DNA of 64,000 bases from an uncultured Victivallales bacterium (GTDB taxonomy: Bacteria > Verrucomicrobiota > Kiritimatiellia > UBA8416), in the NCBI GenBank assembly GCA_964576795.1, contig CAZNWT010000005.1, forward strand, positions 17,696 through 81,695, written 5' to 3'. The notes beneath the pieces are model-generated. The model was not told where the DNA came from. It saw only the letters and a program-made list of their open reading frames with translations, and did not search any database. A program made the translations under genes and the position numbers. Below are positions 1,191 through 15,900 of this stretch, piece after piece (position 1 is the first letter of the stretch; each line of letters starts with the position of its first letter).

Positions 1191-2825
1191 ATGTCTAAGT
1201 TGACTAAGATTCTTATTAGTGAGGGCTTGATTTCTGCCGAACGCTTGGCCGAGGCCGAGGCGCTGGCAGCATCCTCGTATAGTCCATTGGTATCCGTCCT
1301 TGTGCAGCAAGCGTTTGTGGACGAGTCTGAGTTTCTTCGAGTCTATGGACGACTGCACGGCCTTGAGTTTGTTTCCTTGCGTGACATAACGGTTGATGCC
1401 GGTGCGGCTCGAAGCATTAGTGCCAAACTTGCTGCGCATTACCATATTGTTCCCATTCGCCTCACATCGGGAAGCATTACCATTGCGGTGTCTGACCCGC
1501 TTGATTTACGAGCCGCCGAAGATATTGAGACGAATTTGGGGCTACGCGTTGAACGTGTTTTGGCCTGTCGTGCCGACATTGAGGGGGCACTCCAACGGCA
1601 CTACGGTGTGGGTGCAGACACGGTCGAACGCATTTTGGCTCGGGAACCGGAGCGTGACGTTGAGACGCTTGAGTCTGATTCGTTGGACATTGAGCAACAG
1701 GCGTCCGATGCGTCGGTCGTACGGCTGGTAAATCAACTTCTCAAAGAAGCCATCAAGGATCGGGCAACGGACATTCATTTTGAAGTTCACCGTAACGGTG
1801 TGGTTGTACGGCGTCGTATAGATGGGATTCTCTACGATACGAATGTGTCGAGTCGGATGCTTTCGCTCTATCCCTCTATTGTCTCCCGCATCAAGCTGAT
1901 GGCGGGGCTCAATATTGTTGAGCGCCGGTTGCCTCAGGATGGGCGCGCCCGGGTCTCGATTGAGAGCCAGAATTTCGACCTGCGGGTTTCGATTGTGCCC
2001 GCAATGCATGGCGAAGATATTGTGATTCGCATTCTACCCTCTGCAATGATTTTTGATCTTGGCGAACTTGGGTTTAACGAAACGCAACTTTCTATGCTTG
2101 GGGGGTTGATTGAATCGCCCCACGGCATTTTGTTTGTCACTGGTCCCACGGGCAGTGGAAAGAGCACAACCCTGTATGCGTGTATGAGTCGTCTCAATAC
2201 GCGAGAGCGCAAGATTATTACGATTGAGGATCCGGTTGAGTATGAATTGCGCGGCATTACGCAGACGCAAGTCAATGCCAAGATCGGGTTAACCTTTTCG
2301 CATGCACTTCGTAGCATGTTGCGGCACGATCCCGACGTCATGATGGTGGGTGAGGTGCGAGATCGTGAGACCGCAGAAATTGCGGTGCAAACGGCGATGA
2401 CGGGACATCTTGTTTTGAGCACACTGCACACGAATGATGCAGCGGGGGGGGCGGCGCGATTGATCGATATGGGAATTGACCCCTATCTCATTACCTCGAC
2501 CGTGCAGGCGTTCATGGCGCAGCGGCTTGTGCGTACCATTTGCACAGACTGCCGGGAGTCCTATGAGGTCGACGGCCGCACGTTATATCGTGGGAAGGGG
2601 TGCGATCGTTGTAATCACTGTGGGTTCTGGGGGCGTATCGCCATATGCGAGTTCCTGCCGTTGACAGATGAAATTAGCGAATTGATTCTGGCAAAAGCGT
2701 CAGCGCATCAAATTCGTGAGCGTGCCAATGCATTGGGTATGAAAATGTTGATTGATGATGGTTGGGCTAAGGTTGAGCAAGGACTGACGACCGTCGAAGA
2801 GATTATGCGAGTTACAGCGGTCTAA
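1191..2825 (+). CDS. gspE: Type II secretion / type IV pilus assembly ATPase (GspE/PilB family)
   Basis: N-terminal GspE_N-like domain, Walker A GPTGSGKST, Asp and His boxes, and a C-terminal tetracysteine motif CTDC…CDRCNHC. Confidence 0.9.
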   Translation: MSKLTKILISEGLISAERLAEAEALAASSYSPLVSVLVQQAFVDESEFLRVYGRLHGLEFVSLRDITVDAGAARSISAKLAAHYHIVPIRLTSGSITIAVSDPLDLRAAEDIETNLGLRVERVLACRADIEGALQRHYGVGADTVERILAREPERDVETLESDSLDIEQQASDASVVRLVNQLLKEAIKDRATDIHFEVHRNGVVVRRRIDGILYDTNVSSRMLSLYPSIVSRIKLMAGLNIVERRLPQDGRARVSIESQNFDLRVSIVPAMHGEDIVIRILPSAMIFDLGELGFNETQLSMLGGLIESPHGILFVTGPTGSGKSTTLYACMSRLNTRERKIITIEDPVEYELRGITQTQVNAKIGLTFSHALRSMLRHDPDVMMVGEVRDRETAEIAVQTAMTGHLVLSTLHTNDAAGGAARLIDMGIDPYLITSTVQAFMAQRLVRTICTDCRESYEVDGRTLYRGKGCDRCNHCGFWGRIAICEFLPLTDEISELILAKASAHQIRERANALGMKMLIDDGWAKVEQGLTTVEEIMRVTAV

Positions 2826-2837
2826 TCGAGGGCACCG

Positions 2838-4046
2838 ATGCCGAGCTATATCTACAAGGCTAAAGAGGGGCCAAGCAAGACTGTTCAAGGGGAACTGATT
2901 GCAGAGTCCGAGGCGTCCGCGATTGCGCGTATTGAGGCGATGGACTTGATTCCCGTGTGGGTTCGTCCCAAGGGGGCGGGGCATGCGGTGAGCGCACGGC
3001 CTTCGCAACGTGGCATTCGTTCGCGCGACATATCCGTTCTTACTCGCCAGCTTGCAAGTATGTTGCGTTCCGGGGTTCCGATTCTGAGAGCCCTAAACAC
3101 GATTGGGGATCAAACCGAAAACCGGCGGTTGCAGGCTGTTATTAGTGACCTTGAGGCCTCCATTCGCGATGGCAGCATGTTGTCAGAAGGGATGCGGCGT
3201 TACAAAAAGCTGTTTCCAGATCTTTATGTCAACATGGTTGAGTCAGGCGAATCCGGAGGGGTTCTTGATACCATGCTCTTTCGACTTGCTGAAGCGGGGG
3301 AAGTTGAAGAAGAGAATCGCCGAAAAGTACAGGCAGCCATGGCTTATCCGGTGCTGGTTGCGGTTGTCGGTTTTATTACCGTTTTAGTGCTGCTGTCTTT
3401 TTTTATGCCACGTGTGGTCGTGCTGTTTGAGGGATATCAGCAATTGCCTCTCCCCACTCAGATTCTGATTGGGGTTAGCACCTTCTTCTCCAGATATTGG
3501 TATTGGCTTGTTTTTGCAGTGGTTTTGGTTGTTCTCGTCTTCCAACGTCTGGCGGCGTTGGACCGCGGACGCACCTTTGTGGATGGGCTGAAACTCCGGT
3601 TTCCACTGTTGGGTCGATTCTTGCGGGATGTTGATCTGGCACGCTTTGCCCGGACGTTTGCATTGTTGATTGCTTCCGGAGTCTCCATTGATCGTGTATT
3701 GCGGTTGAGTGCAAATTCTATTCATAATGCCGTTTTGCGTAACGAAGTGGAGTCGATCCGAACCCGAACGCTGAAGCATGGCATGACGCTTTCGGCAAGC
3801 ATTAAGGGCTCGGTATTCTTTCCCCCATTTGTTGGCAATATGTTGGCAGTGGGAGAGGAGACAGGGCACATTGATGAATCGTTGAATGAAGTTGCCCGTT
3901 TCTATGAGGGGTGCGTGGATCGACAGAGCCGTATGGCGACCTCTCTTATCGAACCCATACTCCTGCTTGTTGTCGGCCTGCTTGTTGGATTCATTGTGTT
4001 TGCCATGTTGTTGCCCATTTTTGAAATTGGGAGTGGGCTGCGGTAG
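2838..4046 (+). CDS. gspF: Type II secretion / T4P platform protein (GspF/PilC family)
   Basis: About 400 aa with a duplicated T2SSF-type domain architecture and three transmembrane segments. It lies directly after gspE. Confidence 0.85.
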   Translation: MPSYIYKAKEGPSKTVQGELIAESEASAIARIEAMDLIPVWVRPKGAGHAVSARPSQRGIRSRDISVLTRQLASMLRSGVPILRALNTIGDQTENRRLQAVISDLEASIRDGSMLSEGMRRYKKLFPDLYVNMVESGESGGVLDTMLFRLAEAGEVEEENRRKVQAAMAYPVLVAVVGFITVLVLLSFFMPRVVVLFEGYQQLPLPTQILIGVSTFFSRYWYWLVFAVVLVVLVFQRLAALDRGRTFVDGLKLRFPLLGRFLRDVDLARFARTFALLIASGVSIDRVLRLSANSIHNAVLRNEVESIRTRTLKHGMTLSASIKGSVFFPPFVGNMLAVGEETGHIDESLNEVARFYEGCVDRQSRMATSLIEPILLLVVGLLVGFIVFAMLLPIFEIGSGLR

Positions 4047-4055
4047 TCTGAGTAA

Positions 4056-4086
4056 ATCGGAAATTGGAAATTGGAAATTGGGAAAC
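4056..4086. repeat. Tandem GAAATTGG repeats
   Basis: cggaaattggaaattggaaattgggaaa. Related degenerate copies occur at 24948-25022 and reverse-complemented at 11228-11262. Confidence 0.6.
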
Positions 4087-4195
4087 AGAACCTGACATTT
4101 CATGCCAGCCAACCCCCTGTCGTCGTACCTCCGTCGGATTATACAGGGTGGAAACTTACGGGTACTAGGCGTCGTGATGAATTGGTGGTTATTTC

Positions 4196-4288
4196 AACGT
4201 CCAACAACCAACGTCCAACGCCCAACTTCCAAGAGAGGGTTCCTCTTCGTTTGGCGTTGGTTGTTGGACGTTGGTTGTTGGGCGTTCG
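4196..4288. repeat. Palindromic CCAACG-rich dispersed element, copy 1
   Basis: caacgtccaacaaccaacgtccaacgcccaac…gttggcgttggttgttggacgttggttgttgggcg forms a long hairpin. A related copy lies at 16316-16388. Confidence 0.65.
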
Positions 4289-5087
4289 ATTTGAGTTTCA
4301 GGTTTGGCGGGGCTGGGGAGTGGCGTGGTTGCTGATTCTGGTTGCCGCATCGACGCTCGCTGGAGCGACTCCCGATGTGTGGGACACCCTCAAAGGCAAG
4401 CACTTTATCGTTTCCCATCAGGGAAATGCAGCCTTTGCGGCAGAGGTTCTGCACCGGGCAGAGTTGTATTACGATTCAATTGTGCAGCAACTCGGGTTTA
4501 AGCGAGTTGATAACTTCTGGCTTTGGGAGCGTCGCGCCCGGATAAAGCTATATGCGAGTCGTCAGGCGTTTATCGAAAGCACGGGGGCTCCTGATTGGGC
4601 GACGGCCAAGGCCAATGTCCGTGACCGCACAATTGAATCCTTTGGTAACAGTAGGGTGTTTCTCGAATCCAGGCTTCCCCATGAGATGGCTCACCTTTTT
4701 TTTCGCGAATACATTGGATTCACGGGTGCGGTTCCGCTCTGGCTGGATGAAGGAGTTGCTCAGTGGTGTGAGTTTGAGCCTGGGCCATCTACGCCGCCCG
4801 CTTTGCGGAAGTGGATTCCGCTACGGGTGATGACGACCATGACTGTAAATGAAATTATGGATGTTGATCGGGCACAACTTTTCTATCGCGAATCCGCTTC
4901 TGTCGTTGAGTATTTGGTTACGACCTATGGCAAAGGTGCATTCACAAAATTTTGTCGACAGTTGCGGGATGGAAAACGTTTGGATAGGGCTTTGCGGTTT
5001 ACTTATCCAAACACCATCTCTACACTGGAGCTATTAGAACAACAATGGTCTGTGTGGCAGATTGCACGCAGTATTCGCAATCGCTGA
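4275..5087 (+). CDS. Secreted gluzincin-like metallopeptidase (Peptidase_MA-like; HEMAH…E), start uncertain
   Basis: HEMAHLF followed by WLDEGVAQ gives the HExxH + E zinc-binding signature, and there is a hydrophobic signal-like segment WLLILVAASTLAGA. The ORF is open from 4071, but the upstream part is repeat sequence. Alternative starts are TTG 4275/4278 or GTG 4320. Confidence 0.5.
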   Translation: MLGVRFEFQVWRGWGVAWLLILVAASTLAGATPDVWDTLKGKHFIVSHQGNAAFAAEVLHRAELYYDSIVQQLGFKRVDNFWLWERRARIKLYASRQAFIESTGAPDWATAKANVRDRTIESFGNSRVFLESRLPHEMAHLFFREYIGFTGAVPLWLDEGVAQWCEFEPGPSTPPALRKWIPLRVMTTMTVNEIMDVDRAQLFYRESASVVEYLVTTYGKGAFTKFCRQLRDGKRLDRALRFTYPNTISTLELLEQQWSVWQIARSIRNR

Positions 5088-5110
5088 TACGGAATAGGGA
5101 AGGAGATACG

Positions 5111-5506
5111 ATGAATAAGCAGAGAGGATTCACGCTAATTGAGTTAATGATTGTCGTGATCATTATGGCGGCACTGGCTGGGATGGTATTGCCGCGCCTT
5201 CTTGACCGTGCTGATGATGCGAAGATCAATATTTCAAGAGGTGAGATTGCATCCATCACAATGGCGCTGAAGTTCTATAAACTGGACAACGGCTCCTACC
5301 CAGGGAATCTGAGTGCCCTGATGTCGAATGCCGATTCTGCAAACAACTGGAAGGGCCCCTATCTTGAGAAGGCTGCGGTTGACCCCTGGAAGCGAGCTTA
5401 TGAGTATCAGCGGCCGGGGCCCAATAATCCAACGTCCTTCGACTTGTGGTCAAAAGGTCCCGATGAGGCCAATAGTGATGATGATATCTCGAATTGGGAA
5501 GACTAG
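5111..5506 (+). CDS. gspG: Type II secretion major pseudopilin
   Basis: Prepilin leader MNKQRGFTLIELMIVV and GspG signature …W.GPYLE…DPWKRAYEYQRPG…FDLWSKGPDE. An RBS ggaagga lies upstream of the ATG at 5111. Confidence 0.85.
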   Translation: MNKQRGFTLIELMIVVIIMAALAGMVLPRLLDRADDAKINISRGEIASITMALKFYKLDNGSYPGNLSALMSNADSANNWKGPYLEKAAVDPWKRAYEYQRPGPNNPTSFDLWSKGPDEANSDDDISNWED

Positions 5507-5531
5507 GCTTTTGAATCGGTCTTCTTTTTCT

Positions 5532-5978
5532 GTGAGAACAACTTCTCGCGATGGGTTCACTCTTATTGAGGTGCTTATTGCTGTTGTCATCCTTTCGACG
5601 GGAATTGTTGTCGTGTTACAGGGATTGCAATCATCCCTGAGTGCCTTGGATGGTGCGGTGGAAAAGACGCGATCGGCAATGCTGTTGCAGGGGAAACTGG
5701 AAGAAGCCCAAGCGACTGCACTTGTTGGAGCAGACCCGTCAACGCTTGGCACGAGCGGTGGCTTTGCGGATCCTTTCGGTCGGTATCTCTGGCAACTGAA
5801 TTCTGTCTCTGCCCCGCTGTCGAGTATGGGTGGTGGGGTGGAAGGTGGCGGAGTGTTTTACGAAGTGAATGCCACGGTGTGGCGGGAGGGAAGTGTGCGC
5901 ACCTATTCGGCCGCAACACGCGTCTATGTGAGGCCTGAATTGGATGCTTCATTGGGGGATGTGGGAGGTTCTCTGTGA
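5532..5978 (+). CDS. Minor pseudopilin (GspH/I-like), GTG start inferred
   Basis: Prepilin-type N terminus …RDGFTLIEVLIAVVILS. The frame is open from 5328, but the leader length fits GTG 5532. Confidence 0.6.
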   Translation: MRTTSRDGFTLIEVLIAVVILSTGIVVVLQGLQSSLSALDGAVEKTRSAMLLQGKLEEAQATALVGADPSTLGTSGGFADPFGRYLWQLNSVSAPLSSMGGGVEGGGVFYEVNATVWREGSVRTYSAATRVYVRPELDASLGDVGGSL

Positions 5979-6565
5979 ATCGCGTTCGCCAGTCTGCCTT
6001 TACGTTGATCGAGCTGGTGGTGGTCTTGCTGATTATGGGCACTGTGGGCTCGGTTATTGTTGCCTGTTTTATGGGAGGCGTTCGTGCCTATGAACGGGCC
6101 CGTGATTTTGGTCGCGGAGAAACCGATGTTTACATCGCCTTTGAAATGTTGGAACGCGATCTGAAAAATGCGGTTTGGGTTCCCGGATTCCCTTTTATGG
6201 GAGAGCCCTCTTTGATGCAGTTTGCGAGCAAGCGGTCTGAGCCTGTCGAGGATGTAGGGATGGGCCTTGATGTCGTAAAAATTCAGTATCTGGAGCGTGA
6301 TGGGGATGGCGTTTCACGGTCTTCGTCGGGTTTCGGAGAAACGGTTGTGGGCGATTCTGAAGTGTGGGACACCTTGCTGGCCGGAGATGTTGCTATGTGC
6401 TTAGCCTTTAGTGAAGGTGCCGACGCGGGGCATCTTCCGACGTGGGTCGAGACGTGGCAGAGTGAATCAAACCTCCCTCGTCAGGTGCGCGTTCAGTTCA
6501 CAGGTGGGGAATTTGGTGACGCTGGTATTGAGCGCATTATTACAATTCCGGTGGCTGGGGAGTAG
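5975..6565 (+). CDS. Minor pseudopilin (GspJ/H-like)
   Basis: N terminus MNRVRQSAFTLIELVVVLLIMG is a prepilin methylation-type motif. The start overlaps the previous stop. Confidence 0.6.
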   Translation: MNRVRQSAFTLIELVVVLLIMGTVGSVIVACFMGGVRAYERARDFGRGETDVYIAFEMLERDLKNAVWVPGFPFMGEPSLMQFASKRSEPVEDVGMGLDVVKIQYLERDGDGVSRSSSGFGETVVGDSEVWDTLLAGDVAMCLAFSEGADAGHLPTWVETWQSESNLPRQVRVQFTGGEFGDAGIERIITIPVAGE

Positions 6566-6567
6566 GA

Positions 6568-7650
6568 ATGATCATGGGTGCCGCAAATTTTAAGGAGTGT
6601 TGCCCAAATCGAAAGAGCGCCTTCCTCCTTCAGAAATCTCGCTCCGGGGGGAGTGTTCTTATCCTTGTGTTGTGGGTTCTTTTCTTTCTGGTGGCCCTGA
6701 CCGTGGCTGTTGGAACTCACGTTTCAGCCGCTATTACCGCCGCCGAACGGCTGTGGTCGCGTATGGAAGGCCGCTCTCTTGCAGAGGCTGGTGTTCAGCA
6801 GGCGTTCGCGATAGCCATGCAGCAGACCAATGAGTGGGATGGTATCGCCCGTGACGCATGGAATCGTGATCTCTCGGCTTTTACTGATATTTCCATCGGT
6901 GATGGGTTGTGTTCTATCCACTATTGCACGGTTGGGGCCGATGGAAGCGTCGTAACGAACGCCGGTATTGTGGGTGAGGATGGGAAACTCAACCTCAATA
7001 CGATTGTGAAGAGCGATGAGTCGAAACTGGCGTTTGGGGTGCTGATGACAACGGTCGGCGAGCTTGACGCCGAGCGTGCTGATAAGGTCGTGGCAGCAGT
7101 GTCAGATTGGATTGACGAAGACGATGAAATATTGACAGGGGGAGCGGAGAGTGGCTACTATGCGAGTCTGTCACCCTCGTATAAGTGCGCCAACGCTCCG
7201 ATGCGTTGTATGAGTGAATTTAGGCTTGTTAAAGGGGTGAGCAGAGAGCTGTATACACGGCTGGTTTCCTGTTTAACCGTGTATGGGTCTGAGCTAGTGA
7301 ATGTGAACTGTGCACCCGAACCGGTTATAGCGGCTCTGGCACAAGCGCATGCGGAAGGGACGACCGATCTTGATGCCTGTGCGTCATTGGCGGAAAAAAT
7401 AGGGAATTTTCGTAAGGCCGGAGGGGCGTTTCGCGAATCTGATGATATTGGGAGTCCTCCCGAGGATATTGGGCTTACAGGAGATGAGCGCGCCTTGTTT
7501 AGGGGAATGCAGTCGGGACTATATTGGAGTTCAACCGCTTTTCGTGGGGTTTCCGCAGGTGTTTTTGAGGGTGAGGGGCATTCTGGGATGTCGATTGAGT
7601 TTGTTTTGGACACGGTAAGTGGAAGTTTTGTCTACTGGCAAGAACGGTAA
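6568..7650 (+). CDS. gspK: GspK-like minor pseudopilin
   Basis: N terminus …SGGSVLILVLWVLFFLVAL is the GspK-type variant leader. Its ~360 aa size and position after three pseudopilins fit GspK. Confidence 0.55.
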   Translation: MIMGAANFKECCPNRKSAFLLQKSRSGGSVLILVLWVLFFLVALTVAVGTHVSAAITAAERLWSRMEGRSLAEAGVQQAFAIAMQQTNEWDGIARDAWNRDLSAFTDISIGDGLCSIHYCTVGADGSVVTNAGIVGEDGKLNLNTIVKSDESKLAFGVLMTTVGELDAERADKVVAAVSDWIDEDDEILTGGAESGYYASLSPSYKCANAPMRCMSEFRLVKGVSRELYTRLVSCLTVYGSELVNVNCAPEPVIAALAQAHAEGTTDLDACASLAEKIGNFRKAGGAFRESDDIGSPPEDIGLTGDERALFRGMQSGLYWSSTAFRGVSAGVFEGEGHSGMSIEFVLDTVSGSFVYWQER

Positions 7651-7689
7651 GTGGTGTTTGCATTTTCAGTATAGGATGAGGCGGAACTG

Positions 7690-9162
7690 ATGGGAAGCAA
7701 GGGTGCAAAGCTAAAACGTTCGGAGGGGGAGCCCCGCAAGATCGTCGTGCTTGTCGAGATTGGTAACGACTGGATCAAGCTGATCCAAGCCGAATCCAGT
7801 AAACGCGGCGTTACCCTTTCAAAGGTTCACCTTGAGCCGATTGACGTAGACACAAACGTTGTAGATAGCATTGCATCTGCGCTGAAAGCCAAGAAGTTCA
7901 GTATGACTGCGGTATTGACATGCCTTCCACGACAAGCGGTGAATCTGCGATTATTGGAGCTGCCGTCTACGGATAGTGCCGAAATAGCTGACATGGTCGA
8001 GCTTCAAATCGGTCGCCAAACGCCCTATTCCCGGGATGAGATTCTTTCCGACTACAAGCCGTTGGGACGCACACGACAAGGGACGTACACGCGAATTATG
8101 CTGGCAATCGTGCAGCGTAGCGTGGTGCGTGAACGTTTCTATGAAATCGAACAGGCCGGTCTGGATGTTGAACGCATGGGCGTCAGTTCTGAAGGGGTGT
8201 TGAATTGGTTTCTGTACCGAATGAAGGATAAGCCTCAGGATAAGGCTGTGGCCCTTATTGATGTGGATTCCTTTTATACGCAAGTGCTTGTGCTCCAGCA
8301 TGGACGCGTCATTTTCACCAAGAGCATTCTGGTAGGAGCCAAACAGTTGCTGGAGACGAGCGAAGAAAGTCGCGGCCAGCTTACCCAAGAGATTCAGAGT
8401 GCATTTCAGTCTTGCCGCAGTGAGCTTCGTGCTGGCGAGATTGAATCCATTGTTCTGTCGGGTTCAGGTGTTAATATTGAGGGGTTGGCTGAGGAGTTGA
8501 GCAGCGGGCTGTCGCTGCCTTGCGAAGGCCTTGATTCTTTGGCGGACGTCAAATTGGGCAAGGGGGCGGGAGATTTGGGTGATCCTCGTTATACAACAGC
8601 CTCTCTGACGGCCCTCATTGGCATGGCGTTGAATCCTGACGCCCTTGAATTTGATTTAATTCCAGATGTGGTTCGTATGCGCAGGACGCTGCTGCATAGC
8701 GCGTTATCGTCCACGATGTTGGCGGCTCTGGTTATGGCGGCGATGGTGTCCGCCTCGCTGTATGCGATGTTGTCCTATGCGTTCAAAACGCATCGTCTTA
8801 ACGCATTGCGTGAAGCTGTGGCCATAACGCAACCCGCTGTGGTGAAGGTTGAGCGTATGCTTGAGGTCATCCGCGAAACCAACGAACGCCAGGACTCGCG
8901 TTTTTCCATGGTGAATCTGTTACCAGCCATTCACGGTTGCGTCCCCAAAGATGTCTATTTTGAGTCCATTGATGTTGATGTAGAGAAAAAAAATGTCTCT
9001 TTGTCTGGAACAGCACCTGCCCGAAAGGATATTCGGGACCTGCTTAAAATGCTTGTGGATTCACCGTTTTTTGGCGATGTGAGTGAAGATGGACGCGTCA
9101 CCATGGATAAGGATGGACGCTTTAAGTTTCGGGCTGTTGCCAAGTTTGAGGAGGATTCCTGA
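7690..9162 (+). CDS. GspL-like / PilM–PilN-type inner-membrane assembly protein
   Basis: An actin-like cytoplasmic domain of ~330 aa (LSGSGVNIEGLAEEL) is followed by one TM (LAALVMAAMVSASLYAML) and a ~130-aa C-terminal periplasmic region. Confidence 0.55.
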   Translation: MGSKGAKLKRSEGEPRKIVVLVEIGNDWIKLIQAESSKRGVTLSKVHLEPIDVDTNVVDSIASALKAKKFSMTAVLTCLPRQAVNLRLLELPSTDSAEIADMVELQIGRQTPYSRDEILSDYKPLGRTRQGTYTRIMLAIVQRSVVRERFYEIEQAGLDVERMGVSSEGVLNWFLYRMKDKPQDKAVALIDVDSFYTQVLVLQHGRVIFTKSILVGAKQLLETSEESRGQLTQEIQSAFQSCRSELRAGEIESIVLSGSGVNIEGLAEELSSGLSLPCEGLDSLADVKLGKGAGDLGDPRYTTASLTALIGMALNPDALEFDLIPDVVRMRRTLLHSALSSTMLAALVMAAMVSASLYAMLSYAFKTHRLNALREAVAITQPAVVKVERMLEVIRETNERQDSRFSMVNLLPAIHGCVPKDVYFESIDVDVEKKNVSLSGTAPARKDIRDLLKMLVDSPFFGDVSEDGRVTMDKDGRFKFRAVAKFEEDS

Positions 9163-9716
9163 TGCTCGGTCGACTATCGCAACTTCCACCTCGGGAACAG
9201 GTCGGACTTGGCCTCGCCTGTGTTTTTGTGCTCTTGCTTATTTCGGATCAAGTTGTCGTGAAGCCTGTGTCTAAAATTTTAGATCGAATGGGTGTTGAAA
9301 TCGAGGTCGCTGAAAAGCAGGATGATGATAATCGCGAGATGCTTCAGTATGAGACCTCGGTTGAGGTGCGGTATGAACAGGTAAAGAACCTTATTGGGGT
9401 TTCTACGTCCGAGCAGGAGAGTGTTGAGCGTTTCAAGAGCAGTATTGATGAAATGGCGCTGCGCAATGCTATTAGCTTAAAGTCCATGCAGCATCTTACC
9501 CCTGAGCCAACTGACTTTTTGGTGACCTACTTCGTGGAAATTAGTGATTTTGAGGCCGAGACTTTAGCGTTGATCAATTTTCTGCAGGAAATTCAATCGG
9601 CACCGGGCATGCTGCGGGTCAAGAAGATGGCGTTGTCATCGCAGGATGAAACCACGATTGTGAAGGGCTCATTGGTCATCTCCAAAGTCATGACTCTCGC
9701 AGGGGAACAGGAGTAA
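9162..9716 (+). CDS. GspM/PilO-like bitopic membrane protein
   Basis: N-terminal TM (LGLACVFVLLLISDQVVV) followed by a coiled segment and a C-terminal α/β region. The start overlaps the upstream stop (ATGA). Confidence 0.4.
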   Translation: MLGRLSQLPPREQVGLGLACVFVLLLISDQVVVKPVSKILDRMGVEIEVAEKQDDDNREMLQYETSVEVRYEQVKNLIGVSTSEQESVERFKSSIDEMALRNAISLKSMQHLTPEPTDFLVTYFVEISDFEAETLALINFLQEIQSAPGMLRVKKMALSSQDETTIVKGSLVISKVMTLAGEQE

Positions 9717-9719
9717 GGC

Positions 9720-11066
9720 ATGGTCGATGAACTGACTCAAGTTGAAGATAAAAATCTGTCCGAGCTTGATGAGCTACGCGAAGCGATTAGCACTGAACAA
9801 GGGCAGGGCCGTCGGGTCATGCTCTGGTTCATCACGGTATTCCTCTTTATTCTTTTGGTCGTGTTGGCCATGTTCCTTTTTTCTGGAATCTATATCCTGC
9901 GTAACTCCCAGCAAATGGTTAATGCTGTCGAGGATGTTGGTGATATGGCAACCGTCAACACCTTTCATCTCAGTAGTTTTACAAACAGACTTGCGCAGAT
10001 TGAGGGCGTCCAGATGCGCATCTCGGCAAAGCTCAATTCTGCAGACTTCGCCCGGGGGCAGGGATTTGATGCATTGGCATCCGAGCAACGCAAGCATGCA
10101 AAATGGATTGATGCGCGAGATGCTGCCGTTGAGCGCGACAAGCGTAACATCAATGATAGACTGCTTAAGCTTGGTGAACAGAATGCAGTAAACGCCCGTC
10201 AGCTTGCAGAAATTCAGAAGAAATTGGATCAGTTTGTTTCTGCAGGAGGCGTCGTTGTGGTGCCTGGCAATACAACATCGAAAATGTCCACTACGTCAGC
10301 TCCGGGAGAGGGTGATGCCGCCGAGTTGGTGGATTTTGGCATTATATCTCAGGAGTCCCTTGACGAGATGTTTACGGCGGCGTTGGCGTCTGTTGCTGAT
10401 CCCGTTCGTGAGCGGGATACCCCCGAGACCATATCTGTGGTGACATTTCCGAATGAGGATCGCTACGAAGGTGAATTTGTGAACGGGCTGATGCATGGCT
10501 GGGGATCGTACACCTACAAAAACGGCGATTGCTATGAAGGGGAATATGCGAATGATCTTAAGCAGGGGCGTGGGACGCTCACAACTGTTAATGGGGAGCG
10601 CTATGTTGGCGAGTTTGCCAACGACATGAAACAGGGAAAAGGCAGCCTCTCGTGTGCTGATGGGTTGCGATACATTGGCGATTTTCGAGACGACTTGATG
10701 ACGGGGAAAGGTGTGGCCTTTTACGCGAATGGAAACAAGTATGCCGGCGATTTTGTCAACGGGGTCCACCATGGGCGTGGTGCGCTTCGGTTTTTCAATG
10801 GTGACATCTACGATGGCGAATTTCGTAATGGCGTACGTACCGGGCGTGGTGCATATGCGTTTTCCGATGGTGGGCGTTACATGGGGGAATTTGTAAACGG
10901 CGTTCGTCATGGTATGGGCCGCTATATCTACCCCGATGGTGCCGAGTATATTGGCCCCTTCAAAAATGGCAAGAAGCATGGCGAAGGGATTCGTGTTTAC
11001 CCTAATGATGCCCGTCTTAAGGGACTATGGCGCGATGACGAATTCATCCGTGATCTTCAGAAATAA
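9720..11066 (+). CDS. Membrane-anchored protein with 8 tandem MORN repeats
   Basis: Single TM (VMLWFITVFLFILLVVLAMFLF), a coiled-coil region, then eight 23-aa repeats of the YxGEFxNGxxHGxGxxxxxxGxx MORN pattern at 10441-10995. Confidence 0.8.
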   Translation: MVDELTQVEDKNLSELDELREAISTEQGQGRRVMLWFITVFLFILLVVLAMFLFSGIYILRNSQQMVNAVEDVGDMATVNTFHLSSFTNRLAQIEGVQMRISAKLNSADFARGQGFDALASEQRKHAKWIDARDAAVERDKRNINDRLLKLGEQNAVNARQLAEIQKKLDQFVSAGGVVVVPGNTTSKMSTTSAPGEGDAAELVDFGIISQESLDEMFTAALASVADPVRERDTPETISVVTFPNEDRYEGEFVNGLMHGWGSYTYKNGDCYEGEYANDLKQGRGTLTTVNGERYVGEFANDMKQGKGSLSCADGLRYIGDFRDDLMTGKGVAFYANGNKYAGDFVNGVHHGRGALRFFNGDIYDGEFRNGVRTGRGAYAFSDGGRYMGEFVNGVRHGMGRYIYPDGAEYIGPFKNGKKHGEGIRVYPNDARLKGLWRDDEFIRDLQK

Positions 11067-11149: not shown

Positions 11150-11226
11150 CGGGGCGAGGGCGCCCCACCCCCATTATTGCAAGAATATGTTTGACTGCAG
11201 AAATGGAGGTGGACCGCCCTCGTTCC
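11150..11226. repeat. ~77-bp dispersed element with inverted termini, copy A
   Basis: ggggcgagggcgcccc…ccattattgcaagaa…aatggaggtggaccgccctcgttccg. It is ~85% identical to the copy at 14842-14917. Confidence 0.7.
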
Positions 11227-11276
11227 GAATATCTGTCCATTATTTCCAATTTTGCATTTTCCAATTTCAAATCTAC

Positions 11277-11304
11277 CCTAAGGGAAACCCTTAGGTCTTT
11301 TTTT
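11277..11304 (+). terminator. Rho-independent terminator
   Basis: The perfect hairpin cctaaggg-aaa-cccttagg is followed by tcttttttt. Confidence 0.7.
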
Positions 11305-11305
11305 G

Positions 11306-11334
11306 TTGACTATCGGTGTCGCTTTTGAAATAAT
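11306..11334 (+). promoter_or_regulatory. Putative σ70-type promoter for the secreted-protein cassette
   Basis: TTGACT, a 17-nt spacer, then AATAAT, about 200 nt upstream of the 11536 start codon. Confidence 0.3.
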
Positions 11335-11461
11335 CTAATCAGCTTAAGGAACAGCCTTAGTTGGAGGATGAGCGATGTTAGTTGGAAGATGCCATTTTTG
11401 GATACCGAAAATGAGGCACTTTCTTGTTGCACGAAATCGACGATAGTGCCGCAATTAAACC

Positions 11462-11496
11462 GTACTAAGGGAAACCCCTAGTACTGCTATTTTGAG
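11462..11496 (+). promoter_or_regulatory. Second near-identical hairpin plus U-tract in the 5' leader (attenuator-like)
   Basis: gtactaaggg-aaa-cccctagtac is followed by tgctattttg. It lies ~40 nt upstream of the RBS (gagaggga) and ATG at 11536. Confidence 0.4.
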
Positions 11497-11535
11497 TCTA
11501 GAGGTTAGAAAACAACTAGAAGAGAGGGAGTAATA

Positions 11536-12888
11536 ATGAAACGATTGACTGAGTATTTAGGGGTATTTCTGCTTGGGTTAGTATTGACCACTGCCGTAGC
11601 CCGCGCAGCAGTAAGTTTACCGTTTAGTGATGGTTTTGAGGATCAAGCCATCGGTGCCGCTCCATCGAATGTCTGGGTGATAGGAGCTGCTGATATCTAT
11701 GTTACGAATACCTCCCCGGCCATCGGCACTCAATCTCTCCAAATGGATGAGGGCGATGAGGACCCGGAGCTTACGCTTGCGGTAGGCGGAGGGGAGAGCA
11801 ACGTTTACTGGGTTGGCTCGGCAAAGGTCACGAAGGGTTCATCCGATCCCAGCATCGGCACCTCGGTGGCCGCCTTCTACATCACTACCAACAATGTGGT
11901 TCGGGCGAGTGATGGCGGAGACTGGACAAATTTGTATACACTTTCCAAGGATGCCGAAACTAACTGGATTAGCTATGCCGTGCATTTGGACTATACCAAC
12001 GGGATCGGGATGTGGGATCTCTACTTGGCTGAAACGAATAGTGCCGCAAAACTCACAAAGCGTAACTCGGCCCCGCTGGATTTTGCTGCCCAGGGAGCCG
12101 GTCTTGTAGAATTCGAGGTCACCGGAAATACGTCTCTTGATGCCGTCGCTATGAATATTGGATTCACGGCTGTGGGCGTTGCAACCTCGCCTGATGAACT
12201 TTCGGTAAGAACCGCCTCGCACAACTCAAACATATGGTATTCAGCGCGTGTGGGCGATGTTGGGGCGGCTAAATTTTTGGAGCCGGATGGCGATTACCTG
12301 AAGGAAGGGCTCGCTGTCGGCGATATCATCAAGTTCTACGATACCGATGCCTGGGAGACGTATAAGATTGAAGAACTCGGTGGTGTTCGCGTGTGGAGTG
12401 CGGTGAATTCAGCCGCTACTCCTATACTGTCTACTACTCAGAAGGTTGCAGGTGCTATGCCGATTACCAATGGTATTCCCTACTGGATTGTATATGCCAG
12501 TACAGCGACTGATGTCCCTCTGTTCTTCCCGTATGACCATGATCCGGCAGTGATAGCAGAAGAAACGCTTAGTATGGGCAGTTGCACGATTAATTCAAAC
12601 GGAACCGCCGCTGGTTGGACTACGCTCAGGTGGACATCGGCCAACACGCGGTCCCTGACCGCAGCCGGGTTGACGGATGCTGGTTTTGATCCAGATGTCC
12701 CTGACGGGATGGTGTGCATCTCAATCGAAAGTGGCACATGGAAATTTGTGCGCTCGGTGTGGGATAATGGCCAAGACCGCTGGGAGGTCCGTGGGGGCAA
12801 GGTTTCAACTGATGTATTTCAGCCAGACGAGGAAATCTGGTTATACAATCCAGGTGACGATGATATCACTTGGACAATCATCGATTAG
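11536..12888 (+). CDS. Secreted protein of unknown function
   Basis: Sec signal peptide MKRLTEYLGVFLLGLVLTTAVARA and a G/S/T/W/D-rich mature region. The RBS is gagagggag. Confidence 0.6.
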   Translation: MKRLTEYLGVFLLGLVLTTAVARAAVSLPFSDGFEDQAIGAAPSNVWVIGAADIYVTNTSPAIGTQSLQMDEGDEDPELTLAVGGGESNVYWVGSAKVTKGSSDPSIGTSVAAFYITTNNVVRASDGGDWTNLYTLSKDAETNWISYAVHLDYTNGIGMWDLYLAETNSAAKLTKRNSAPLDFAAQGAGLVEFEVTGNTSLDAVAMNIGFTAVGVATSPDELSVRTASHNSNIWYSARVGDVGAAKFLEPDGDYLKEGLAVGDIIKFYDTDAWETYKIEELGGVRVWSAVNSAATPILSTTQKVAGAMPITNGIPYWIVYASTATDVPLFFPYDHDPAVIAEETLSMGSCTINSNGTAAGWTTLRWTSANTRSLTAAGLTDAGFDPDVPDGMVCISIESGTWKFVRSVWDNGQDRWEVRGGKVSTDVFQPDEEIWLYNPGDDDITWTIID

Positions 12889-12922
12889 AAGCGTGTGAAT
12901 TCCAGCAAAATAAGGAGCAATG

Positions 12923-13916
12923 CATGAAGCCGATAGAAAAAATTAAGACGGTAGTGGGTGTCTTCGTTGCGAGCGCAGTGGTACTCGCAATTATGCTGAG
13001 CGCAGAGCGTTGTCAGGCGCAACCGAGCCCCGGTGTTGAGGGCGAGGATTGGGGGGTGCTTTCTGAAGAAGGGGCGGCAACCGTTTCCTATGGCGTTGAT
13101 GCGGTATCTGTTGATTTCGCCGCACGCAATACGTTAACACAACCGACTGCGAAGTACCGAACGATTTCCGTTTGTGTCGGTACCCAGAGCCCATTGTTCA
13201 CGGGAAATTATACGGATTCTGGGGTAACGGGCGTGGGATTCAGTCTGGCCGGAGTGGGCGAGGCGAAACCGGGCGTGATGGTTACGCTGGTAGGAAAAAA
13301 TGACCTGACATGGTATAATAGTTCAGTTGAGCTGAGCGAAGTGGATGGCGAGTGGCAGCCGAACAACATTTCATTTGAATATGAAGATGGATGGTATCGC
13401 GATGCTTTCAACACGGAAGCCAATTGGAATGCAGCCCTAACGGATGTGAAGTCTATTAGCGTGTATATTATGCAAAGTGGAAACCCTGCGCAGACCGGCT
13501 ATTTAAAGAGCTTCAGACTCCTGAACGCTCAGCAGACCGCCACTACCGCGGGGACACTCACGGCCCGTGTTCTTGCTTGGTTTGGGGTTGAGAATGAGCG
13601 CGATGCCGACAGGGGGCTTGATTCTGACGGCGATGGCATTTCAGACTACCTTGAGATTACAATGACGGAGACGGATCCGGGCGATGCGAATTCTGTTCTG
13701 AAAGTCGATGTGCAGAGGTTAGCGGTGGGGCTGCAATTGAAATGGGTTGTTGCTACCGGCAGATTGTATGATGTGTACCGGTGTGAGAATCTGGGCTCCG
13801 ATTTTACAGTTATCGCGAGTCGCATCGAAGCACTCTCGACTGGTCTTCTTGAGTATAACGATGTGACGGCAACTGGCGAAGGCCCCTATTTCTATCGAGT
13901 TAAACAAGTACAGTAG
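12923..13916 (+). CDS. Secreted protein with a calcium-binding-like DxDxDG motif
   Basis: RBS aaggag then ATG 12923. The signal peptide is MKPIEKIKTVVGVFVASAVVLAIMLSA, and the motif is DSDGDGISDYLE. Confidence 0.55.
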
Positions 13917-13938
13917 AGGACAGAAAGGAATCGCAAAA

Positions 13939-14742
13939 ATGAATATCCATTTCAAATACGTTTTACTTTTGACGGTGGCAGTATCCATGTTTACAGCGGT
14001 GGGCGAGGCTGCGAGCATTGTCGAGGATTGGACGGCCGGTGGTATCCGAGATTGGGATATTGCGAACGCGTTAGGAGGGGCTGCTTATGGTGGGCTTACG
14101 GAAGGTTCTCTTGGTGTTGGTCACGCTAACGCACTGATCATTTCGGGAGGAGCATCGTTAGTCGGACGTAGTGATGCAATCTCAGCCGATGATGCTGGGC
14201 TTTCAACCGACTTCATCGGAAACTACGCCACTGGTGTAGGTCTTGAAGGCGGCACCATCGGTGCTATTGAAGGGCTCTCTTTTGATTTCTATGTGGATTC
14301 GGGACCGGCTTCGGGTGGCCCCAGCGGTATCACCCTGTTTTTTGATACATCGTATGACGTTGGGTCGCCTGGTGGTGGCACTTGGTTTTTGGACATCACC
14401 GGTGTTGCGAACGGATGGGGTTCTTATGGCTCAAATATCGACACGTTAAGCCTCGCTTCTGTCTCCTACGGTGACTGGTATTCTGGTGAGTTTAGCACAG
14501 TTGGCGATTGGAGCGGTTCACTGGCGTTAGTCACGGATATTGGTATTGAGCTTGATTATCTTAGCTCGATAGCTGGACAGATTTACGGTGTCGACAATTT
14601 CACGCTAAGCGAGGGTAACTTCGCGGTTCCAGAGCCTGAGACCTACCTTGTGCTCGGAATGGCGCTGCTGTCTGTTGCCGTTGTCTTCCGCAAGCGGATC
14701 AGCGAGTCTTTGGCTGAAGCTCGTGCAATGTTGATGGTTTAG
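13939..14742 (+). CDS. PEP-CTERM-anchored secreted protein (exosortase substrate)
   Basis: N-terminal signal peptide. The C terminus VPEPETYLVLGMALLSVAVVFRKR matches the PEP-CTERM motif + TM + basic tail. Confidence 0.7.
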   Translation: MNIHFKYVLLLTVAVSMFTAVGEAASIVEDWTAGGIRDWDIANALGGAAYGGLTEGSLGVGHANALIISGGASLVGRSDAISADDAGLSTDFIGNYATGVGLEGGTIGAIEGLSFDFYVDSGPASGGPSGITLFFDTSYDVGSPGGGTWFLDITGVANGWGSYGSNIDTLSLASVSYGDWYSGEFSTVGDWSGSLALVTDIGIELDYLSSIAGQIYGVDNFTLSEGNFAVPEPETYLVLGMALLSVAVVFRKRISESLAEARAMLMV

Positions 14743-14770
14743 TTACAAATATTGCTCTTAATAATTCTGA

Positions 14771-14803
14771 AAAGCCCTACCACATTGTGGTGGGGCTTTT
14801 TCA
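14771..14803 (+). terminator. Rho-independent terminator
   Basis: aaagccctaccaca-ttg-tggtggggcttt followed by ttc. Confidence 0.6.
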
Positions 14804-14841
14804 TGTCGTGGAGGTGGCCCGCTCTTGGGTTGCTTATGTCC

Positions 14842-14917
14842 GGGGCGAGGGCGCCCTAGCTCCATTGTTGCAGGATGAGGGTAGATTGCTGTAATGGAGG
14901 TGGGACGCCCTCGTCCC
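14842..14917. repeat. ~77-bp dispersed element with inverted termini, copy B
   Basis: ggggcgagggcgccctagctccattgttgcagga…taatggaggtgggacgccctcgtcccg. It sits in direct orientation relative to copy A. Confidence 0.7.
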
Positions 14918-14945
14918 GCGAGCGCAGGGAGGGGGGGGAGGGGTT

Positions 14946-15653: not shown

Positions 15654-15900
15654 CTGGGAAGCGATCTCCTTTCAAAATTGATGACGTAGTTCCACTTTGA
15701 TACGAATGCTAGCAAAAATGCGATATGGAGGGACACTCTATTCTGAAATAGGTCTGCATCTCCGAGTTGGGAAACGCCGGTGAGGGATAGTCGGGAGTGC
15801 GCTCCTGTTGTAGTGCGTCATTGCATGACGTATTCCCGACCTTCAGGCGGGCCCAGATACAATCTGGGGCTACACCTCGGAGATGCGTGCCTAAATGGTA

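Follow-up and report, generated by a model that had tools for sequence, protein, structure and literature searches.

REP-like repeat doublets on either side of a secreted-protein operon linked to type II secretion genes in an uncultured Kiritimatiellia genome

A 64,000-nucleotide stretch of DNA from an uncultured Victivallales bacterium of the Kiritimatiellia (GenBank assembly GCA_964576795.1, contig CAZNWT010000005.1, positions 17,696 to 81,695 of the forward strand; hereafter the window) carries, just downstream of a cluster of type II secretion system (T2SS) genes, an operon of three genes for secreted proteins, c1 to c3, that is flanked by two direct copies of a hairpin-forming element. 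The element represents a new sequence family of a known kind, namely that of the repetitive extragenic palindromic (REP) sequences and the compound forms built from them, REPINs (REP doublets forming hairpins) and bacterial interspersed mosaic elements (BIMEs). We consider it likely that the two copies are REPIN- or BIME-like REP doublets that inserted independently into the two spacers flanking an old operon, and that neither marks the end of a mobile unit. The case calls for caution, as inverted-repeat elements that flank an operon mimic the boundaries of a cassette, yet here they belong to a genome-wide REP-type family in permissive spacers.

A repeat search of the window finds the pair at 11150-11227 and 14841-14918, with an ungapped identity of 79% and a longest identical run of 16 nt common to both copies. 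The initial annotation had described direct copies of about 77 bp and about 85% identity; the copies are real and direct, but their length is 78 nt and their identity lower. It was right about the complementary termini: each copy folds into a long hairpin, with folding energies of -47.8 and -54.0 kcal/mol and z-scores of -6.7 and -6.4 for copies 1 and 2, respectively (z about -6.5 on either strand). The arm sequences GGGGCGAGGGCGCCC, a 15-mer, and AATGGAGGTGGRMCGCCCTCGT, a 22-mer, are confined to these two elements in the 64-kb window, the shuffle expectation for such matches being 0.08 and 0.00, respectively. The repeat unit itself is 25 nt long and reads AATGGAG-GTGG-NNCG-CCCT-CGNN-CC, often with GCAG on its 3' side, and each 78-nt element is a doublet of two such units in inverted orientation around a 26-nt spacer. 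Each arm forms its own hairpin, with a 6-bp stem and a 4-nt CCCT loop, and is thus a short imperfect palindrome as in the definition of a REP. The 11-nt leader of the unit, AATGGAGGTGG, is strongly conserved, and GTGG, which lies 5' of the stem and overlaps it such that the last two G residues are paired, is nearly invariant. The two doublets and a possible additional unit are located as follows.

11150..11227, plus strand: REP doublet 1 (REPIN-like), units 11151-11175 (-) and 11202-11226 (+), 26-nt spacer
14806..14830, plus strand: possible decayed third REP unit CGTGGAGGTGGCCCGCTCTTGGGTT, weak, 6 mismatches to the unit, nhmmer E = 0.34
14841..14918, plus strand: REP doublet 2, units 14842-14866 (-) and 14893-14917 (+), 26-nt spacer

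Doublet 1 begins 84 nt past the stop codon of a MORN-repeat gene, upstream of the terminator of the T2SS/MORN operon, while doublet 2 is located in a convergent spacer beyond the terminator of c3, with the stop codon of a SurA-like gene 28 nt away. With the decayed unit just upstream of doublet 2, this second site would be a small BIME-like cluster.

Which structure is conserved, the long hairpin or the small hairpin of each arm? Over 28 units, 95% of the cells of the arm hairpin are paired, and two of its pairs show compensatory exchange between GC, CG and AU (20 cells), a level reached by 0 of 500 shuffles. Within the doublets, pairing reaches 91% in the local arm hairpins, where 10 cells are compensated, whereas the 25-bp long stem is 80% paired with zero compensation, and its failures fall precisely at the variable positions. 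As compensation occurs in the arms and not in the long stem, the small palindrome is the conserved object, and the long hairpin exists because two palindromic units sit in inverted orientation. These covariation patterns indicate that selection acts on the small hairpin of each arm and not on the long stem. G-U and C-A exceptions in the arm stem are approximately balanced, so that a strand preference is not visible.

The proposal of a bounded cassette came with the suggestion to look for more copies of the element and for what they flank. Scanning the JGI metagenomes with a 19-base pattern from the 3' arm identified 17 metagenome loci (referred to here by L numbers), 10 of them on separate contigs of the single metagenome Ga0307929. 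In one sample, the family amounts to about 30 units at about 17 sites on 11 contigs, that is, 10 besides the source contig of the window. Full doublets of 70-85 nt are present in L123, L124, L125, L127, L131, L132, L134 and L138, lone arms in L124, L126, L129, L132 and L134, and two further metagenomes also contain members (L130 and L137). Nearly all sites are intergenic, convergent spacers being frequent, and the genes beside the dispersed copies are unrelated housekeeping genes, encoding an ABC ATPase, ArsP, ExbD, a peroxiredoxin, a rhomboid protein, an M48 peptidase, GDPD and RibF. No synteny was found between the window and the other element loci besides the repeats. Further copies thus occupy many unrelated intergenic sites. 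A third copy was not found in 84 kb of the source contig (window and both flanks). A scan of viral contigs for the unit pattern gave no match.

Do these dispersed copies belong to the genome of the window? The window belongs to a metagenome contig of 102 kb, ERZ27316330 k141_228472 (ENA), of which the 84 kb are covered here. The names of the sources from which PilM/N homologues derive likewise point to the Kiritimatiellia. A protein look-up with L131 shows that a single sample underlies three assemblies: JGI 3300031697 (Ga0307929), ENA ERZ27316330, from which the window derives, and Logan SRR8526173. The tetranucleotide correlation with the window is 0.85-0.96 for the Ga0307929 loci (0.935 when pooled), compared with 0.90-0.94 for chunks of the window against the rest of it and 0.72-0.77 for other Kiritimatiellia. 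Judging from the common sample and the composition, the dispersed Ga0307929 copies are most probably part of the genome from which the window comes. The copy in L134 is 83% identical to window copy 1 and 85% identical to window copy 2, and each window copy is therefore nearer to it than to its partner, which makes the two family members and not a pair. Window copy 2 and the L134 copy have a spacer in common, and the doublets of L123, L131 and L138 have one common spacer at different loci, so that the doublet may be what is copied. In these last three, the doublet is located within a longer repeat of 150-220 nt with 78-89% identity (L131 10148-10366, L138 1895-2113 and L123 4746-4893). Singletons are not clearly more decayed than doublets.

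The locus could be compared with five relatives or pairs of contigs, found via the PilM/N protein of the T2SS cluster. Where the trio is present, homology was established by tblastn in three relatives and from the gene table only in the fourth (P0005 contig). Percentages below refer to the PilM/N protein.

P0005 contig: PilM/N 77%; MORN, three genes of ~440, 330 and 250-270 aa, then SurA-like, RecO and MgtE on the opposite strand; gene table only
L146: PilM/N 69%; gene order as in the P0005 contig
L147/L148: PilM/N 66%; MORN and homologous trio; in L147 followed by SurA-like and RecO-like genes (tblastn), while L148 stops past c3
L149/L150: PilM/N 50%; unrelated genes 3' of MORN
L151: PilM/N 45%; MORN gene missing; trio directly 3' of GspM, then SurA/RecO/MgtE/YbeY

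The contig of a further close relative, P0004, stops inside the MORN gene. The trio is kept in four relatives but not in all: L149/L150 lack it at this position, and this 50% relative shows no trace of site-specific exchange. Neither fuzzy matching nor nhmmer finds units of the family in the DNA of L146, L147 and L151, and the equivalent spacers of the relatives contain other hairpins and repeats, some of which are CTAC-tagged. The proteins of the trio have diverged strongly (27-36% identity for c1, 28% for c2 and 40-44% for c3), in comparison with 68-82% for the flanking GspM and MORN proteins. From this gene order and divergence, the trio appears to be an old, fast-diverging operon that is vertically inherited with the T2SS cluster.

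These data bear directly on the interpretation of the initial annotation, in which the block is an exchangeable cassette bounded by integron attC-like sites or by MITEs (transposable elements of the miniature inverted-repeat type). It is true that one operon is exactly bracketed by two direct copies and that attC sites, too, are imperfect inverted repeats bordering promoter-proximal genes. However, the paired RYYYAAC/GTTRRRY core (R''/R') is not found in the elements, no integrase, recombinase or transposase is encoded among the genes of the 84 kb, and cassette variability is missing: the operon has its own promoter, and the trio occupies an equal place in four relatives, the readable three of which lack the element. 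Moreover, each of the two copies has a closer match at an unrelated locus than in its partner. The cassette interpretation is refuted because the element is widely scattered and the three-gene block is syntenic in relatives, and we attach next to no probability to elements that would serve as recombination sites of an integron-type or otherwise exchangeable unit. Recombination between the two copies was considered separately as an excision route and is ruled out, the longest identical run being 16 nt.

The second form of that proposal, a MITE, would make the element a deletion derivative of an insertion sequence (IS) with a DDE transposase, the arms being its terminal inverted repeats. A compact inverted-repeat structure and many dispersed copies would be in keeping with such an origin, and one family member, L137, adjoins an IS1595-type transposase gene, but this IS has its own, unrelated 54-nt inverted repeats (L137 513-566 and 1512-1565). 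Furthermore, target-site duplications are absent from all 9 doublets inspected, with 0-2 nt of chance identity, single arms occur alone, and each arm is itself a palindrome with compensatory changes while the arms are unlike each other. The Correia/NEMIS-type MITEs of Neisseria are similar in being intergenic inverted-repeat elements of about 100 nt that are co-transcribed with their neighbours. In those, however, the terminal inverted repeats measure 26 bp and a TA duplication is present, in contrast to the self-palindromic arms without duplication described here. A MITE origin is thus very unlikely in our assessment. In L137, which comes from another metagenome, a four-unit cluster (346-566) lies directly beside the IS1595-type element and its last unit is cut right past GGAGGTGG; this REP cluster may have been the target of the IS.

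Alternatively, the element could be a functional RNA or DNA motif encoded by the host, for example a terminator, a hairpin that stabilises mRNA or a binding site for a protein, that is selected in place and not selfish. The hairpins are very stable, the sites lie in 3' regions and convergent spacers, and the strong conservation of the 11-nt leader would also agree with a function. On the other hand, units point either way with respect to the genes beside them and in some cases lie within long open reading frames (ORFs), the balanced stem exceptions give no hint of a preferred strand, and the element is absent from the orthologous spacers of relatives, where other hairpins sit. An Rfam search, which the initial annotation had recommended for the element, returned nothing at gathering thresholds, and permissive E-values gave spurious miRNA-hairpin matches only. 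We therefore regard a motif maintained for its function as unlikely.

We return to the interpretation of the elements as independently inserted REP doublets, on which several points weigh negatively. A gene for a REP-associated tyrosine transposase (RAYT; Y1_Tnp) was not found in any Kiritimatiellia locus covered, among them 84 kb of source-contig DNA, some 100 kb of loci from the same sample and the element-adjacent ORFs, using tblastn with an Escherichia coli YafM sequence and two Acidobacteria Y1_Tnp proteins, and Pfam on 10 ORFs. Unlike classical GTAG tags, which are unpaired, the GTGG tag overlaps with the first two pairs of the stem. The Ga0307929 contigs are tied to the genome of the window via sample and composition, not via a bin. 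Finally, there are just two copies in 84 kb and these lie in consecutive spacers, for which the chance is roughly 10% in a crude estimate that assumes about 21 usable spacers (≥120 nt) in the window.

How could the present arrangement have come about? Doublet 1 would have inserted at the 3' end of the T2SS operon and doublet 2 into the convergent spacer, as separate insertions. The family may have been spread by a RAYT-type HUH tyrosine transposase that acts on the single-stranded hairpin and leaves no target-site duplication. An incidental role is conceivable, as very stable hairpins in 3' untranslated regions (UTRs) might buffer mRNA decay or read-through between neighbouring operons. Such a putative contribution to 3'-end stability or insulation would involve doublet 1, which follows the MORN stop codon and precedes the terminator, and doublet 2, located 28 nt past the SurA-like stop codon.

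The architecture is best compared with the REPINs of Pseudomonas fluorescens SBW25 and other bacteria (Bertels & Rainey; PMC3337134, PMC3116915). A REPIN consists of two inverted REPs and a spacer that together form a hairpin, and is presumed to move with the help of a RAYT acting in trans (PMC3337134). The elements described here likewise combine inverted short imperfect palindromes with a spacer, are about 80-90 nt in whole, form a long hairpin, are mostly extragenic, and include doublets with the same spacer at different loci as well as coexisting singletons; the GI REP of P. fluorescens also begins with GTGG. In contrast to the situation in SBW25, a cognate RAYT was not found, tens of copies have been seen so far and not hundreds, the sequence of the unit is unrelated, and the host belongs to the Kiritimatiellia. 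Members of the GTAG-type REP superfamily have stems of 5-13 bp, short loops and dimer spacers of 20-100 nt; dimers have their tags inside (TT) or outside (HH), and some are heterodimers whose stems differ (Di Nocera et al, 2013; PMC3733652). They are mostly found downstream of genes with occasional intragenic copies, and occur in the Planctomycetes-Verrucomicrobia-Chlamydiae (PVC) superphylum, the tag being GTGG in Opitutus terrae (PMC3733652). Similar to these REPs and BIMEs, the unit described here combines a stem of 6 bp with a short loop and an end tag of the GT(A/G)G type, and forms dimers and heterodimers. It differs in that the tag overlaps the stem, in the additional conserved leader of 7 nt, AATGGAG, that comes before the tag, and in that a REPtron was not identified. 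Single REP units also occur within ORFs of 1919 and 1477 aa (L124 8125-8155 and L134 5056-5093, respectively) with the reading frame intact, and intragenic REPs have been reported for Opitutus terrae.

A scan of a genome collection with the pattern GGGCGAGGGCGCC..CGCCCTCG was of no use for finding the family, as this pattern is too GC-rich and actinobacterial chance matches dominate the matches listed. Among the same matches listed are two loci in metagenome-assembled genomes of Acidobacteria (L050 1350-2110 and L035 6159-7914) in which Y1_Tnp (RAYT-like) genes are flanked by REPs that read GTGG-GGCGGGCG-CCCT-CGCCCGCC and GTAG-CGCGGGCG-CCCT-CGCCCGCG (GTGGGGCGGGCGCCCTCGCCCGCC or GTAGCGCGGGCGCCCTCGCCCGCG). 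These REPtrons have in common with the unit described here the GT(G/A)G tag, a GC-rich stem and the CCCT loop, and are unlike it in their longer stems, the missing AATGGAG leader and the different phylum; the likeness may be convergent. Since the Acidobacteria Y1_Tnp genes are flanked by tagged hairpins with a CCCT loop, this design is in use by true REPtrons.

The new family extends REP/REPIN-like repeats to the Kiritimatiellia, and in the literature searched we found no paper linking Kiritimatiellia with REP, REPIN or MITE repeats. The 25-nt unit could help to bin or type these uncultured genomes. A more far-reaching possibility, which we put forward tentatively and hold to be rather doubtful, is that of an undescribed Kiritimatiellia REP/REPIN lineage in which the invariant Shine-Dalgarno-like leader AATGGAGGTGG would contribute to the site recognised by a RAYT that is unusual or absent, or in which doublets would have been co-opted as insulators; separately, the T2SS-linked trio of a lectin-fold c1, c2 and a PEP-CTERM c3 might then constitute a dedicated surface complex or the substrates of a secretin-less T2SS cluster.

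Repeats of other kinds accompany the family. The same genome contains further intergenic repeat families, for example at L123 12542-12708, L131 7686-7839, L134 523-682 and L127 3142-3231. The window itself contains a second dispersed repeat, about 55 nt long, at 15783-15837 in the spacer between the SurA-like and RecO genes. It has a folding energy of -35.8 kcal/mol (z = -3.7) on the plus strand, no Rfam match, and 89% identity to L127 4992-5046, a copy at a non-syntenic site 3' of a ProRS-like ORF. The spacer between c3 and the SurA-like gene gathers different repeats in different lineages. In L146 (7600-7940), it contains a tandem duplication of about 200 nt that is full of hairpins, for example GCATCCCTCCGGGATGC and a CTAC-tagged palindrome.

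Turning to the operon between the doublets, several features recognised by the initial annotation are borne out. Exactly three ORFs lie between the elements, all with N-termini that by inspection resemble Sec signal peptides, and the block follows a pseudopilus cluster in which genes for GspE, F, G, H/I, J and K, a PilM/N fusion, GspM and the MORN-repeat protein precede c1. Terminator-like hairpins with T-runs are present on either side. The features of the operon and its spacers are listed below.

11276..11303, plus strand: terminator-like palindrome CCCTAAGGGAAACCCTTAGG with T-run at the end of the T2SS/MORN operon, conserved in L146 and L147
11306..11334, plus strand: sigma-70-like promoter TTGACT-17-(TG)AAATAAT for the c1-c3 operon, conserved in L146 and L147
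11462..11484, plus strand: conserved palindrome GTACTAAGGGAAACCCCTAGTAC, ~50 nt ahead of the c1 start and 3' of the promoter-like box TTTCTTGTTGC
11536..12888, plus strand: c1, 450-aa secreted protein
12924..13916, plus strand: c2, 330-aa secreted protein, ATG start, AAGGAG Shine-Dalgarno sequence
13939..14742, plus strand: c3, 267-aa secreted protein with PEP-CTERM sorting signal
14769..14801, no strand assigned: bidirectional terminator-like hairpin AAAAGCCCTACCAC-ATT-GTGGTGGGGCTTTTT with T-runs, foldable on both strands

The region proximal to c1 has a conserved order, consisting of the terminator palindrome with T-run, the TTGACT-17-TGAAATAAT promoter, a second promoter-like box and the GTACTAAGGGAAACCCCTAGTAC palindrome, and spans 11276-11484 in the window, 4026-4250 in L146 and 13981-14206 in L147. 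The second palindrome of this module is nearly identical to the first and sits 187-193 nt beyond it (CCCTAAGGGAAACCCTTAGG then GTACTAAGGGAAACCCCTAGTAC). It could be an operator or a hairpin of the 5' UTR or RNA. Upstream of this conserved module the MORN-c1 spacer is variable, and it is there that REP doublet 1 is located. The promoter and palindrome upstream of c1 may merit study as a regulatory site.

The signal-peptide-like N-termini of c1, c2 and c3 comprise a basic N-terminus, a hydrophobic core and ARA/CQA/GEA cleavage motifs. The PEP-CTERM anchor previously assigned to the last gene is confirmed, as c3 scores above the curated cut-offs of both PF07589 (22.1 vs 20.7 bits) and TIGR02595 (17.3 vs 16), and its orthologues do so in 3 of 3 relatives with readable DNA. 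Protein c2 has one TSP3-type calcium-binding repeat, below the Pfam cut-off, which is kept in the orthologues of L146 and L147, while the L151 copy has no Pfam match. Sequence searches of the PDB with c2 and c3 gave nothing useful. No match to c1 exists in Pfam and NCBIfam, and word-indexed homologue searches returned 2 proteins each. By exhaustive search with a hidden Markov model, the c1 family comprises at least 305 cluster representatives at E ≤ 1e-3, mostly of 420-450 aa, and none of the 61 members tested has a Pfam match. An AlphaFold model of c1, built from a 61-sequence alignment, has a mean local confidence (pLDDT) of 87.6 and a predicted template modelling score (pTM) of 0.86; in this confident model, the N-terminal part is predicted to form a concanavalin-A-like lectin/glucanase sandwich. 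The same N-terminal domain is also repeated in giant proteins of 1000-3500 aa.

Taken together, c1-c3 make up a conserved operon with its own promoter, which is linked to T2SS genes and encodes secreted or surface proteins of the beta-sandwich type. As the linkage to the T2SS cluster is kept down to 45% PilM/N identity, the proteins are candidates for substrates or partners of the adjacent T2SS; putative export by this system would be plausible and compatible with the data. This was also among the suggestions of the initial annotation. The locus thereby offers a candidate set of T2SS-linked secreted proteins, including an unnamed lectin-fold family of about 430 aa.

In the T2SS operon itself (window 1191-11066), a Peptidase_MA_2 gene is located between GspF and GspG, and the last gene encodes the MORN-repeat protein, which is 448 aa long and has an N-terminal membrane segment. 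Genes for a secretin, GspC and a prepilin peptidase are not present in this cluster. In the relatives L147 (5206-6513) and L148 (5243-6451), which have identical PilM/N, the T2SSF gene is intact in L148, whereas short ORFs take its place in L147, which may be a disruption or an assembly difference. On the source contig 3' of the window (L140 13662-19516), a second T2SSF gene lies directly past rplQ and is followed by six small genes, five of which encode proteins with prepilin-type N-methylation signals.

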